Program-made: the position numbers and the translations under genes | Notes under the pieces: generated by a model | The model's input: only the letters and a program-made list of their open reading frames with translations | Databases searched by the model: none | Told to the model about the DNA's origin: nothing | Assembly (NCBI GenBank): GCA_963422645.2 | Contig: CAXXVO010000013.1 | Coordinates: forward strand, 64,001-128,000 | Reading direction: 5' to 3' | Source of the DNA: Alphaproteobacteria bacterium | Lineage (GTDB): Bacteria > Pseudomonadota > Alphaproteobacteria > UBA828 | DNA length: 64,000 nt | Part shown: one piece after another, positions 35,736 through 40,106 of the stretch | How the letters are laid out: every line of letters starts with the position of its first letter | Numbering within the stretch: the first letter of the stretch is position 1

Positions 35736-36038
35736 TTTCGGCACCGCATCGTCCGTCTCGACGGAAAGCCGGCGGCTGGAACTTCCCTCCCCTCCCTGCA
35801 CCGTGTTGACTTGCTTGGCCGAGCGTCCCGCCGTTTCCGTCAGGATTTTCTCGAGTCGCAACGCTGATGGGATGCTTCGAGAGGCCGCTCCCTGAACGGC
35901 TAACGCGGGCAGGGCTTGCTCGCAATGCCACCCAGCGCCGACCGACTCTCTCTGTAACTACCCAGGTACCCCAATCCTGAGTTGAGGACGGTGATTATGG
36001 CGGCGGCCGCGGCCTGGTTCTGCCACCGCGATTGGTTC

Positions 36039-36099
36039 TTGACCTCATAGAGTTGCGGGACTATGGACCGCTCTCTCGCGTGACGGGAGCGGTCCATGG
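36039..36099 (+). promoter_or_regulatory. Putative IS promoter overlapping a hairpin that sequesters the RBS and ATG
   Basis: TTGACC-N17-TATGGA (36039-36067). Stem ATGGACCGCTC (36063-36073) / GAGCGGTCCAT (36087-36097) covers the GGGAG SD and the ATG at 36096. Confidence 0.65.
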
Positions 36100-36761
36100 G
36101 GTATTTCGGCTCGAAGGCGACAGCAGGTCTGTGCCAAGCGCTGATTGCGCTGATGCCGCCGCACTCCGTCTACATCGAAAGCCACCTTGGGGGCGGGGCG
36201 CTGATGAAGCGCAAGCCGCCGGCCGTGCGTTCGATCGGCATCGACCGCGATGCGCAGGCGCTCGAGGCCTTCGTCTGCGACTACCCGGTCGATCTGGTTC
36301 ACGGCTGTGCCCATGACTTCCTGGCCTCGTTCCCGTTCCTGGGCCCGGAGCTGGTTTACAGCGATCCGCCCTATCTGCACGCGACCCGCCGCTCGGCGCA
36401 GCGCTACCGCTTCGAGTACGAGGAGGCCGGCCACGTCGCGCTTCTCGCGCTGCTCAAGGCTCTGCCCTGCCAGGTCATGATCTCGGGCCATCCGTCGGCG
36501 CTCTATGACGAGGTGCTGGCGGGATGGCGCCGGCTGGCGCTGCAGGTCACGACCCAGGGTCTGGTGCGAACCGAGGTCGTCTGGTTCAACTACGCCCCCG
36601 ACCGGATGCATTGGGCCAGCCACGCAGGCCGGAACTTCACCGACCGCCAGCGCATCAAGCGCAAGGCAGCCAACTGGGGCCGGCGCTACCAGGCCTTGCC
36701 GCCGGGCGAACGCCTCGCCGTGCTCGCCGCCATGATGGCCGTCGAGGCCGAAGACACGTGA
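36096..36761 (+). CDS. Compact D12/Dam-like N6-adenine DNA methyltransferase
   Basis: Motif X YFGSK, motif I YIESHLGGGA, IGID, motif IV YSDPPY, VMISG, RTEVVWFNY; 221 aa. Confidence 0.85.
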   Translation: MGYFGSKATAGLCQALIALMPPHSVYIESHLGGGALMKRKPPAVRSIGIDRDAQALEAFVCDYPVDLVHGCAHDFLASFPFLGPELVYSDPPYLHATRRSAQRYRFEYEEAGHVALLALLKALPCQVMISGHPSALYDEVLAGWRRLALQVTTQGLVRTEVVWFNYAPDRMHWASHAGRNFTDRQRIKRKAANWGRRYQALPPGERLAVLAAMMAVEAEDT

Positions 36762-38296
36762 CGGTGTCGCACTGGCACGAAGACCTCGCCGCCCGTAACG
36801 AGGCCTTCTGCTGCCTGAAGGAGCTTCTCGAGCCATCATCCCTCGCAACCACTGTCGTCGTTGCCGTCCGGGAATGGGGGCAGGGGCTGCTGCGATCAGC
36901 CACCGCGCTCGCCCGGGAAAATGCCGCACTCGAGCAGGAGAACGCGGCCCTGCGCGAGCGCATCGCCGAACTCGAGCGCAGCGCGGCCCTCAACAGCACC
37001 ACAAGCAGCAAGCCCCCCGCCAGCGACGGGCTCAAGAAGAAAAGCGGAGCCCAGAGGCGCACCCAAAGCCAGCGCGGAAAGTCCGGCGGGCCCAGTGGCG
37101 GCCAGCCCGGCCACAAGGGAACCACCCTCGCGCGGAGCGACAGCCCGGACCGTGTCGTCGATCACCACCCCTCCACCTGTTCCGGCTGTGGCGTCGAGCT
37201 CTCGGACGCCGACCGGCAAGGCGCGCCCGCCTGTCGGCAGGTCTTCGACGTACCCGAGCCGCAGCCTCTCGAGGTCACCGAACACCGCGCCCATCGCTGC
37301 CTCTGCGGCGCATGCGGCACGCTGACACGAGCCGCCTTCCCGCCGGGCGTCACCGCCCCGGTCCAGTACGGCCCTCGCATCACCGCTTGGGTGAGTTACC
37401 TGCTGTACGCCCAGTTCGTGCCCGAGAAGCGTCTGGCCGAACTCATGAGCGACATCTTCGCGGTGTCCATCTCCACTGCCACGATCGCCGCCATGGGCCG
37501 GCGCACAGCGCAGCGCTTCGAGGGCTTCCTCGACCATGTCGCCGATCTGATCCGCACGCAGGCGCCGGTCAAGCACCTCGACGAGACCGGCCTGCGTATC
37601 GCCGCCCGTACCCGCTGGCTCCATGTGCTGTGCACCCCGTTGCTCACCGTCCTGCGCATCGGCGAGGGACGCGGCGATGTCGAAAAGAACCTGAAAGGCA
37701 TCCTCGTCCACGACGACTTCGCCCCCTACTTCACCATCAAGGGCGTCCGCCACGGCGCCTGCAACGCACATCACCTGCGCGAACTCCAGGCCCTGATCGA
37801 CATCGAGAAGGAGGAATGGGCGGCGAGCATGCACCGCCTGCTTCAGCGCGCGCGCAGGGCCGCCCGCTTCGCCCGTGAGAAAGACCGTCAAGTCCCCGCC
37901 TCCCTGGTGGCCCGCATCTCAAGGGCATGGGACCGTATCCTCGAAGAAGCCATCGCCTTCCATGAGGCCCAACCGCCGCTCCAGATCGCAAAGCGAGGGC
38001 GAAAGAAACGCCGCATCGGCCACAACCTCGCGCGCCGCCTTCAAAAGCATAAGGAGGGCTGCCTGCGCTTCCTCACCGACATGCGCACGCCGTTCACGAA
38101 TAACGAGGCGGAGCGTGACATCCGTATGAACAAAGTGCATGAGAAGATCTCAGGCGGCTTCCGCTCCCTGCAAGGCGCCTGCAACTTCGCCGGAATGCGC
38201 AGCGTCATCGTCACCGCTCGAAAGCAAGGCTGGAACATCCTGCAAATCCTGGCGCACCCGGAACCGATGCAGCTGATCCCTATACTGCGCTCCTGA
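36758..38296 (+). CDS. tnpC: IS66-family DDE transposase (TnpC)
   Basis: Coiled coil, NSTTSSKPPASD, GGQPGHKG, CSGC/CGAC zinc finger, HLDETG, LVHDD, CNAHHLREL, FTNNEAERDIR. The GTG start overlaps the MTase TGA. Confidence 0.93.
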   Translation: MTVSHWHEDLAARNEAFCCLKELLEPSSLATTVVVAVREWGQGLLRSATALARENAALEQENAALRERIAELERSAALNSTTSSKPPASDGLKKKSGAQRRTQSQRGKSGGPSGGQPGHKGTTLARSDSPDRVVDHHPSTCSGCGVELSDADRQGAPACRQVFDVPEPQPLEVTEHRAHRCLCGACGTLTRAAFPPGVTAPVQYGPRITAWVSYLLYAQFVPEKRLAELMSDIFAVSISTATIAAMGRRTAQRFEGFLDHVADLIRTQAPVKHLDETGLRIAARTRWLHVLCTPLLTVLRIGEGRGDVEKNLKGILVHDDFAPYFTIKGVRHGACNAHHLRELQALIDIEKEEWAASMHRLLQRARRAARFAREKDRQVPASLVARISRAWDRILEEAIAFHEAQPPLQIAKRGRKKRRIGHNLARRLQKHKEGCLRFLTDMRTPFTNNEAERDIRMNKVHEKISGGFRSLQGACNFAGMRSVIVTARKQGWNILQILAHPEPMQLIPILRS

Positions 38297-38591
38297 ACTT
38301 CTCCGGCTCATCCTGAGTATCGCTGTCCTCTCATCTTGTTCGCGACGCGGCGTTCATCATCCTCTCGCGCTCAAGAGAGTAGGCACCCCCGCGGCGTGGG
38401 GGCGTTGACGCAAAAGGAACTGGCTTGTTCCATAAGAGAGAGGGGGTACCTGGGCAGTTACCTCTCTCTGCTTGTTGTTAAGCGTGGAAAAGTGACCCCC
38501 TATTGGGGGTGATCGGCGTCCAAAATTGACCCCCTTGGATTTGTGTCCATGAACACACCTCGTCGTTTGGACGGACGGGGTGGTGGGGGAG

Positions 38592-40106
38592 ATGCTGGTT
38601 GTGGAAACGATCGCGAAGATCCGTCGGGATCATCTGGTGAAGGGCGTTCCGATCAAGAAGCTCGCCCGGGATTTGAGGGTTTCCAAGAACACGATACGCA
38701 AGGTGGTGCGGGGCGATGCGACCTCGCACAGCTACGAGCGCAAGATCCAGCCGATGCCGAAGCTTGGGCTGTGGGTGGAGGAGCTTGAGCGCCAGCTGAA
38801 GGCCAACGAGAAGAAGGCACGCAAGGATCGGCTGTCTCTTCTGCGGATTCATGAAGACCTTGTGTCGCTGGGCTACAAGGGCGGCTATGACGCGGTTCGC
38901 CGCTATGCCAGGGCCTGGCGGCGCCGGTGGCGGCTGTTGTCGCCGGCGCAGGCCTATGTGCCGCTGATCTTCGATCCCGGCGAGGCCTACCAGTTCGACT
39001 GGAGCCACGAGTACGCGCGTCTGTCGGGCGCGACGACCAGGGTGAAGGCGGCGCACATGCGGCTGTGCCACAGCCGGATGTATCTGGTCCAGATCTTTCC
39101 CCGCGAGAGCCAGGAGATGGTCTTCGAGGCGCACGAGCGTGCCTTCCGCTTCTTCGGCGGGGTCTGCCGGCGGGGCATCTACGACAACATGAAGACGGCG
39201 GTGAGCACGATCTTCGTGGGCAAGAAGCGGGACTACAACCGCCGCTTCCAGGAGCTGTGCTCGCACCATCTGGTGGAGCCTGTGGCGTGCACGCCAGGGG
39301 CTGGCTGGGAGAAGGGGCAGGTCGAGAAGCAGGTGGGTGACCTTCGCGGCCGCCTGTTCGTGCCCATCCCGCGGGGCCGCTCCTACGCCGAGATCAACGA
39401 GTGGCTGATGGATCGGTGCATCGAGGACGCCAAGAAGCATCCGCATCCGACAATCCCGGGCAAGACGGTGTGGCAGGTGTTCGAGGAGGAGCAGCCCTTC
39501 CTGATGGCGTATCGCGGCCCCTTCGACGGCTTCCATGCCAGCGAGGTGTCGGTCTCGAAGACCTGTCTGGTGCGCTTCGACAACAACCAGTACAGCGTCG
39601 CGGCCCGCGCCGTCGGCCGGCCGGTGGACGTGCGGGCCTATGCCGATCGGATCGTCATCCGCCAGGACGGCGAGACCGTTGCCGAGCACCCCCGCAGCTT
39701 CGGGCGCGGCCGGTTCGTCTACGATCCGTGGCATTACGTGCCGATCCTGACGCGGAAGCCCGGCGCGCTACGCAATGGCGCGCCCTTCAAGGACTGGCAG
39801 TTGCCCAACGCGCTCGGCCGCCTGCGAACCCGGCTCGCGGGCCACGACGACGGCGACCGGCAGTTCGTCAAGGTGCTCGCGGCGGTGCTGGAGGACGGAC
39901 TGGAGGCGGTTGAGGCGGCCTGTGCCGAGACGCTCGACTGCGGTGCCTGCAGCGCCGACGTGGTGCTCAACATCCTCGCCCGGCAGCGCCAGCCGGCACC
40001 GCCGGCAATCATCCCGACGCCCGAGGGCCTGCAGCTTCGCCACAAGCCGGTAGCCGACTGTCAGCGCTACGACAGCCTGAGGGAGGCCGGTCATGGAGCG
40101 TCATGA
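38592..40106 (+). CDS. istA: IS21 transposase IstA
   Basis: N-terminal HTH ([17 protein letters not shown]), [32 protein letters not shown]. Confidence 0.95.

Follow-up and report, generated by a model that had tools for sequence, protein, structure and literature searches.

Anatomy and mobility of the element

The window analysed here is a stretch of 64,000 nucleotides (nt) from an alphaproteobacterial genome assembly (GCA_963422645.2, contig CAXXVO010000013.1, positions 64,001 to 128,000 of the forward strand), and positions 35954-38461 of it hold a complete, 2508-bp insertion sequence (IS) of the IS66 family (Table 1). The element carries two genes, the first for a protein of 221 amino acids (aa) that belongs to the Upf31 family and has a predicted Dam-like methyltransferase fold, and the second for the transposase TnpC. 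With its sigma-70-like promoter and a dyad, the first gene makes up a modular cassette of 0.74 kb that is common to four types of IS. The inverted repeats of the element, GTAACTACCCAGGTACCCC and GTAACTGCCCAGGTACCCC, start with GTAA and agree at 18 of 19 positions, and the two genes overlap as GTGA, with the TGA of the first gene at 36759-36761 and the GTG of tnpC at 36758-36760. The extent of the element, its repeats, the perfect 8-bp target-site duplication and the overlap had all been given in a preliminary description of this DNA, made from its letters alone, and each was confirmed.

Table 1. Features of the IS66-family element and its flanks (positions in the window)
Feature	Positions	Strand	Remarks
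Left copy of target-site duplication, 8 bp, CTCTCTCT	35946-35953		Direct sequence match
Left inverted repeat, GTAACTACCCAGGTACCCC	35954-35972	+	Left end common to sister element A2 and related elements of metagenome-assembled genomes
Cassette promoter	36039-36067	+	-35-like TTGACC at 36039-36044, 17-nt spacer, -10-like TATGGA at 36062-36067
Dyad CATAG-N10-CTATG, putative operator	36046-36065		Between -35 and -10
Inverted repeat/hairpin immediately 3' of -10	36068-36092	+	Spans GGGAG upstream of ATG; -14.4 kcal/mol, z -1.84
Upf31-family protein, 221 aa	36096-36761	+	Predicted Dam-like (D12-class) methyltransferase fold and two-helix C-terminal domain; DPPY at residues 90-93
TnpC, IS66-family transposase, 512 aa	36758-38296	+	GTG start; PF03050 and NF033517 matches
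Right inverted repeat, reverse complement GTAACTGCCCAGGTACCCC	38443-38461	-	Pairs with left repeat
Right copy of target-site duplication, CTCTCTCT	38462-38469		Direct sequence match

TnpC was matched to PF03050 (E 5e-41, 141 bits, cutoff 23.1) and to the IS66 transposase profile NF033517 (E 3.7e-86, 289.6 bits, cutoff 180), with DUF6444 and zf-IS66 also matched. Many other open reading frames (ORFs) are listed in this GC-rich stretch, none with a family match beyond the two genes, and the first gene gave no match to the IS66 accessory families among Pfam and NCBI-type profiles. Since this two-gene element has no tnpA or tnpB, it was placed, by its own gene content, in the TnpC-only branch of the family, and no named element turned out to be closely related to it.

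The genome assembly (5.9 Mb, 23 contigs) was searched with the element by megablast, giving 140 pieces: 36 full-length copies at ≥99.6% identity, 68 fragments at >98% identity, many of them interrupted by other ISs, and 36 parts of a diverged relative. The 221-aa frame was intact in all 36 full-length copies, with only two distinct protein sequences among them, and TnpC was intact (512 or 513 aa) in 34. Copies with different duplications were sought, as the preliminary description had proposed, and a perfect 8-bp duplication was found at 22 of the 36 full-length copies, mostly AT-rich; as all 22 differ, the mobile unit includes the first gene, which moves as part of the transposing unit, in the same orientation as the transposase and joined to it, as had been supposed. 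The element is active and abundant. A whole-genome protein search with the first protein returned 72 matches, two with an internal stop and 70 without, and the decay of first-gene copies that had been named as grounds for giving up a functional role was not seen. Because only 3 of 20 same-genus genomes had matches to this protein (1, 16 and 2 matches), its presence is patchy and its expansion lineage-specific.

Several full-length copies without a duplication have reciprocally swapped flanks, e.g. GAATACAT/GGAGAGTC at C9:531722-534228 and GGAGAGTC/GAATACAT at C6:391794-394300, and further copies carrying each other's duplication halves lie at C16:2108, C9:348571 and C3:226134. These swapped halves point to inversions or translocations by recombination between copies.

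A sister element, A2 (2461 bp, 82% identical), shares the left repeat and the pair of genes with the 2508-bp element, while its right repeat is its own and its dyad reads TATAG-N10-CTATG. It is present in 14 full copies (C8:39646-42106 and 13 other places), 11 of them with distinct 8-bp duplications. Directly right of C8:42106 lies a repeat of ~500 bp with 97 matches at ≥95% identity, another high-copy element.

The same genome also contains an IS66-family element with TnpC only (element C, ~1.9 kb, e.g. C15:154235-156028), the termini of which share the 14-bp tip GTAACTGCCCAGGT with the 2508-bp element, and which gave 68 full-length matches. Its TnpC is ~59% identical to that of the 2508-bp element (71 matches of ≥300 aa in the 55-60% bin). 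From this sibling and from the relatives of TnpC it follows that the 2508-bp element is a TnpC-only IS66 that gained a gene, and did not arise from a classic IS66 by replacement of tnpA and tnpB. Copies of the 2508-bp element were found inside or adjoining element C at no fewer than eight places (e.g. site GAAATGAC), which suggests nested insertion or a preferred target.

A cassette shared among insertion sequence types

Relatives of the first protein numbered 3706 in a word-indexed search, and the best 120 were all ≥70% identical to it; many of these fall in clusters that each hold 100-385 sequences from short contigs, as is typical of a repeat. When 185,579 species genomes were scanned, 354 loci were confirmed, and the analyses below cover the best 80, which come from 39 records of metagenome-assembled genomes (MAGs) with six phyla named in the titles; the non-proteobacterial ones are short contigs, for which the binning is perhaps wrong. 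Among these 80 loci, the gene next downstream on the same strand encodes a close TnpC (68-91% identical, termed IS66-A) at 27 and a distant TnpC (~30% identical, 483-aa type, some truncated, termed IS66-B) at 40, both of them cases of the methyltransferase-like gene upstream of IS66 tnpC that the preliminary description had proposed to count. An IS701-family transposase follows at seven (NF049999 matches at E 3e-93 and 4.5e-92 for two of them, weaker and below cutoff for locus L102), and a transposase with DDE_Tnp_1 and DDE_Tnp_1_assoc, ISAs1-like on weak scores, at three. One locus (L071) has an IS1634 transposase 290 bp away, and two have no transposase downstream, one of these being a contig end. 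The IS1634 transposase was considered as a further partner and set aside as a probable secondary insertion, since locus L057 of the same MAG diverges there. Likewise, ISSp1 (IS1380 family) beside a Sphingobium plasmid homologue was rejected as a fifth IS family and taken as a chance neighbour, the same gene being present in two other plasmids without ISSp1.

The ends of each type were set by comparing copies within genomes. IS66-B elements (2.24-2.29 kb) have the terminal repeat GTAACTACTCACCCC and an 8-bp duplication, e.g. TAAATTTG; IS701-type elements (2.5-2.8 kb) have the terminal repeat CTCGACTTTGT(A/T)CA and a 5-bp duplication (CTGAG, TTCAG, CTTAG); and ISAs1-like elements (2.1-2.25 kb) have the perfect 18-bp terminal repeat CCAGCAGTTCTCATTTTG, with the duplications AACGTAA (L078) and CATTCGATC (L066). 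In all four IS types the repeats enclose the first gene, which stands 5' of the transposase and in the same orientation, and the distance from its stop to the transposase start ranges from -12 to +70 nt across the cassette loci. In the IS701-type elements, a conserved reverse-strand ORF of ~95 aa was seen between the left repeat and the cassette promoter (L051:3472-3760, - strand; same region in L063).

The extent of the cassette was delimited by nucleotide comparison of an IS66-A element with an IS701-type element, between which homology (83-85%) is confined to the stretch that begins ~73 nt upstream of the start codon and ends at the stop codon (≤18 nt past it); at the protein level the cassette is shared at ≥66% identity. 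Between the 2508-bp element and IS66-B, TnpC is 30% identical and the first-gene protein 71% identical. That TnpC is 59% identical to the TnpC of the gene-less sibling but 30% identical to that of the gene-bearing IS66-B counts for modularity. In a protein tree made by a quick method, in which one long outgroup row falls inside the IS-borne clade, a single clade (SH-aLRT 99) unites the IS-borne sequences and sets them apart from the plasmid representatives and those of the rest of the family. Within it, IS66-B takes a basal, paraphyletic position, the IS66-A sequences group together (support 87), the IS701 sequences fall in two places, and the ISAs1-like sequences are nested within a B subclade, so that at least five changes of transposase partner are needed. 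The ratio of nonsynonymous to synonymous substitution rates (dN/dS) of the first gene was 0.12-0.34 between lineages with dS of 0.26-0.82, and did not exceed that of the transposase in 14 of 15 pairs; the first-gene dS was often below the transposase dS. The first gene is under purifying selection.

The TnpC relatives were compared with annotated plasmid proteins. Those nearest to the A-type TnpC are all <50% identical and unnamed, whereas those of the B-type TnpC include the ISGst1 and ISGka4 family transposases of Geobacillus, which we take to be TnpC-only and ISBst12-like. The ISBst12 group lacks tnpA and tnpB. The 2508-bp element resembles the TnpC-only branch in its DDE_Tnp_IS66 and zf-IS66 domains, N-terminal coiled-coil region, GTAA-initiated repeats, 8-bp duplication and absence of tnpA and tnpB, and differs from it in the additional 0.74 kb of promoter, dyad and Upf31-family gene between left repeat and tnpC. 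With relatives this distant and a gene-less sibling that has the same 14-bp tips, the earlier suggestion that the gene occupies the place of the classic tnpA and tnpB was not borne out. The preliminary description had also held that its case would fall if close TnpC relatives with the same repeats mostly lacked the gene; a gene-less relative does exist in element C (~70 copies), at 59% TnpC identity.

The cassette promoter and its encoded protein

Promoters were compared at 79 loci with ≥90 nt of upstream sequence, 42 distinct sequences of which were used for the dyad. The string TTGAC, two bases and (C/T)(A/G)TAG was present at 79/79 loci, and the layout over the 42 distinct sequences is TTGACA-n-CATAG-N10-CTATG(G/C)T, with a 17-nt spacer and TATGGT or TATGCT as -10; in its wider form the dyad reads A-n-CATAG-N10-CTATG-n-T. 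The dyad is perfect in 22 of the 42 and matches at four or more of five positions in 34, and conservation is strong outside the search anchor (C in 38, T in 40, A in 42, T in 34 and G in 36 of 42). In the genome of the element itself, 59 of 59 perfect CATAG-N10-CTATG dyads lie in promoters of this element, with 1.5 expected by base composition. A scan of the element found no promoter-like site belonging to the transposase and no terminator-like site between the two genes.

An inverted repeat follows the -10, with a median z of -1.59 over 46 distinct upstream regions (24 below -1.5) and arms that differ by lineage (GCGCTCTC/GGGAGCGC, GATCCAA/TTGGATC, GGCTCCCAT/ATGGGAGC). The hairpin signal was lost when the first 6 nt were trimmed, i.e. 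with a start ~7 nt after the -10 (median z +0.45 vs -1.59). In read-through transcripts the hairpin may cover the ribosome-binding site; alternatively, the repeat may serve as a second DNA site.

The 221-aa protein had no match in a default Pfam search; PF02086 scored 12.1 bits, below its cutoff of 22, and TIGR00571 (Dam family) scored 22.1 bits (E 1e-4) against a cutoff of 114.85. Among 21 close relatives, 20 matched PF02086 at E≤1 (best 1.3e-6); PF02086 is also assigned to the nearest Atlas clusters, and a PHROG DNA methyltransferase match was obtained at E 2e-17. Motif I (hLGGGA, residues 30-35) and DPPY are invariant in 21 sequences and in 36 family members, and 68 residues spread over the whole protein are invariant in the 21. 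A profile of 36 diverse members searched with hmmsearch found DpnM (E 2.4e-8), E. coli Dam (~2e-5) and T4 Dam (0.01), with the matches lying over motif I and DPPY; a narrow alignment gave only a weak DpnM match in the search of PDB sequences, and the wider one was required. The AlphaFold2 model (pLDDT 91.5) comprises a Rossmann-type core to about residue 165, followed by helices at 181-199 and 203-220, and its best Foldseek matches were E. coli Dam (E 2.2e-7, TM 0.56) and DpnM, with TM scores of 0.5-0.57 overall. Since motif I and DPPY are only ~55 residues apart here vs ~130 in Dam and DpnM, too short a stretch for it, the Dam-type target-recognition domain is missing. The model thus points to a Dam-like fold, and methyltransferase activity is a prediction, as yet unproven.

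The family comprises 8226 representatives at 50% clustering (E≤0.001), to which the IS-borne clade contributes essentially one. Other members, at 36-59% identity, occur on plasmids, with 134 of 196 plasmid records being conjugative plasmids, where they adjoin ArdC-like, SprT-like, RadC and partition genes, and further members occur in phage contigs; the plasmid and phage members all fall outside the IS clade. Upstream of many phage homologues (L110-L189), a recurring GCTGCAG word and imperfect CANNG-N10-CNNTG dyads were seen just before the gene.

The one experimentally tested relative is Upf31 of the IncP-1beta plasmid pBP136, to which tblastn aligned residues 1-206 at 46.7% identity (E 1e-52; 46-47% overall), and in the full alignment motif I, DPPY and the C-terminal domain all correspond. 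In the available text of Elg et al. (PMC11997246; bioRxiv 10.1101/2024.02.05.579024), Upf31 showed no Dam-type GATC methylation, and upf31 in the methylase-free E. coli ER2796 gave no modification signal in sequencing by SMRT (single-molecule real-time) technology (PMC11997246). According to the available text of the preprint (bioRxiv 10.1101/2024.02.05.579024), Upf31 represses the 68-bp promoter of its own gene, with XylE units falling from 4.76 to 0.09, the likely operator in that promoter is given as the inverted CAGCATCG repeats, and the AlphaFold model consists of a globular domain (1-174) and a C-terminal dimerisation domain. In pBP136 the CAGCATCG 8-mer abuts the TTGAC hexamer, in the same place as the CATAG half-site of the IS promoters. 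The IS-borne protein and Upf31 are thus alike in motif I, DPPY, a basic two-helix C-terminal domain and a promoter in which the TTGAC -35 abuts an inverted-repeat half-site. They differ in setting, upf31 being a single-copy gene of the plasmid backbone whose product is predicted to act together with KorB and the IS-borne gene lying inside an IS and followed by a transposase, as well as in half-site (CATAG, not CAGCATCG) and clade. The available text of Elg et al. (Mol Biol Evol 2025, PMC11997246), in which homologues were collected by BLASTN in PLSDB plasmids, contains no occurrence of transposase or insertion sequence.

Proposed mechanism and alternative explanations

We propose, with slightly more belief than doubt, that a portable, self-repressing cassette was acquired by an active TnpC-only IS66 element, in which it would both drive and limit expression of the transposase. 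The Upf31-family protein would bind the dyad as a dimer and repress its own promoter, as the plasmid homologue Upf31 does. The transposase would be expressed from the cassette transcript and come under the same negative feedback, as is suggested by its same-strand position at the close spacing given above and by the failure of the scan to find a promoter of its own. A lone copy entering a repressor-free cell would then produce a burst of transposase, and repression in trans would rise with copy number, such that transposase output would fall as copies and repressor accumulate. It may also be that the protein does methylate DNA at some rare site, perhaps its own operator, of a kind that could be missed by genome-wide motif discovery. 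A wider proposal, in which the Upf31-like family serves as a plug-in 0.74-kb controller captured independently by unrelated ISs (IS66 twice, IS701 twice and ISAs1-like), giving a burst on arrival and self-limitation, perhaps with N6-methyladenine (m6A) at its own operator, is put forward tentatively and is held to be less likely than not.

Several observations weigh against a self-repressing cassette. A shuffle test gave no significant covariation of the half-sites (the observed value was equalled or exceeded in 191 of 2000 shuffles), the symmetry of the dyad rests mostly on invariant bases, and only positions 6 and 29 pair above expectation (32 of 42 vs 23.2). The sigma-70 consensus scan called no promoter anywhere in this copy, the -10 of which is TATGGA, and missed the cassette promoter because this -10 ends in A and not in T. 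Outside the IS clade, only 3 of 6 plasmid homologues showed the dyad, and a perfect 5-N10-5 dyad stood in 11 of 70 distinct upstream regions of phage homologues vs 121 of 1580 control windows (7.7%) in a post hoc test; perfect inverted repeats of ≥6 nt were not enriched upstream of the phage homologues (16/70 vs 265/1580). The (near-)invariance of DPPY, the motif-I glycines and E28 across the family is left unexplained by a pure repressor, and Upf31, only 46-47% identical, acts in a plasmid that encodes KorB, whereas the IS encodes two proteins and no KorB. Finally, element C, without the cassette and with the same tips, outnumbers the cassette element in the same genome, and therefore the cassette is not needed for proliferation of this IS66 lineage and the gene is accessory.

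The invariance of the catalytic DPPY and the motifs for binding S-adenosylmethionine would be expected if the gene encodes an active orphan N6-adenine DNA methyltransferase that is carried as useful cargo, methylating host, plasmid or phage DNA and protecting transferred DNA or the host from restriction-modification, its position being incidental. The Foldseek and profile matches to E. coli Dam and DpnM, the PHROG and PF02086 assignments, and the setting of the wider family on conjugative plasmids beside ArdC-like, SprT-like and RadC genes and in phage contigs are also in keeping with such cargo, and a methyltransferase passenger is on record in IS220 (in the available part of PMC11891212). 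We nevertheless regard this as rather unlikely, as the target-recognition domain is missing and the tested homologue Upf31, in the text available, was without methylation by digest or SMRT, where very rare sites could be missed. Moreover, one would not predict a cargo gene to lie upstream of the transposase, co-oriented with it and joined to it, in all of at least five independent associations, or to bring the same operator-like promoter each time. The self-repressing cassette fits the facts better than cargo because its position and orientation are the same in at least five independent associations, because its own promoter has an operator-like dyad found nowhere else in the genome, and because no separate transposase promoter was found while a homologue represses such a promoter. 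As to the identification of the first gene as a DNA adenine methyltransferase in the preliminary description, the assignment stands as one of fold, with the activity a prediction; the tested homologue represses its own promoter and gave no detectable methylation.

Methylation could instead control transposition, as Dam does for IS10 and IS50, through adenines in the promoter dyad or the ends, with activity raised only on unmethylated or hemimethylated DNA after replication or in a new host. Both strands of the dyad contain adenines, and part of it falls within the -10, a place at which methylation could alter promoter strength; the catalytic motifs are conserved, and the principle is established for IS10, IS50 and IS903 (in the available part of PMC9296519). 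No common site was found, however, in the repeats of the four IS types (GTAACTACCCAGG, GTAACTACTCACC, CTCGACTTTGT, CCAGCAGTTCTC), and in the available text on Upf31 no methylation was detected, whereas direct repression was shown; we consider this explanation improbable, and the regulation of transposition by end methylation that had been suggested for this element found no support in the repeats. GGTACC/GTAC was examined as a shared methylation site and rejected, being absent from IS66-B repeats and some IS701 repeats. The likeness to the Dam-controlled elements is conceptual, a tie of adenine methylation to transposase promoters; IS10, IS50 and IS903 use host Dam and GATC sites, whereas this element brings its own Dam-like protein and no GATC logic is evident. 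If, on the other hand, the cassette were a mere donor of promoter and translational coupling, with a functionless protein that hitch-hikes and has not yet decayed, the intactness of the gene in its own genome would say little, the copies there being very recent (≥99.6% identity), and the transposase is indeed without a promoter-like site of its own. The low dN/dS, not above that of the transposase in nearly all pairs, the 68 invariant residues and the retention of the IS-borne clade in 39 MAG records of six phyla by record title make this very improbable. The same dN/dS values, the 70 of 72 matches without a stop and the identical place in four IS lineages show the gene to be a selected part of the element and not inert cargo, in support of the earlier suggestion.

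The self-repressing cassette was further compared with known arrangements. IS220 (IS1380 family) is described as a transporter IS (tIS) with a methyltransferase passenger (Siguier et al., as quoted in the available part of PMC11891212). The 2508-bp element is like a tIS in that its inverted repeats enclose a non-transposase gene that transposition does not require and that is carried along when the element moves, and the gene-less sibling is also mobile; it differs from IS220, compared here by description only, in that one and the same gene, together with its promoter and operator-like dyad, is met in several IS families and in each of them stands 5' of the transposase and joined to it. Known regulators whose genes precede a transposase gene include InsA of IS1 and OrfA of IS3-family elements, first-frame repressors with a helix-turn-helix that limit the transposase; each is a native part of its IS family and binds the terminal repeats. 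The putative likeness lies in a small DNA-binding first-frame product that limits transposase expression; by contrast, the candidate repressor here has a methyltransferase fold as modelled, comes from a plasmid and phage gene family, and has its candidate site in its own promoter. Passenger-carrying ISs, one with a methyltransferase, and Upf31 itself are already known. In the literature searched, with ISfinder outside its scope, no published description was found of the architecture of this element, of an IS-borne Upf31 clade or of a promoter-operator-gene module common to IS66, IS701 and ISAs1-like elements.

ISs are usually thought to be regulated by devices native to each family. If unrelated IS families have time and again acquired one module from outside, complete with promoter and operator, and purifying selection has maintained it, control of the transposase would be a tradable part. 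Elements at dozens of copies would allow copy-number sensing, and induction when a new host is entered, to be tested in a concrete case, the hosts of the expanded elements being uncultured and apparently host-associated bacteria. They also place the poorly understood Upf31 family in a second natural context that lacks KorB, where continued use of the perfectly conserved methyltransferase site can be examined; if m6A were written at the operator itself, the switch would be epigenetic and heritable. For annotation, caution is advised, as thousands of proteins labelled 'DNA adenine methylase' (the 8226 representatives) may be regulators.

One base past the right target-site duplication of the 2508-bp element, an IS21-family element begins (window 38470-40106 and beyond, with an istA-like ORF at 38580-40106). 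Its terminal words, TGTTGTTAAGCG, also border several other copies and fragments of the 2508-bp element elsewhere in the genome.

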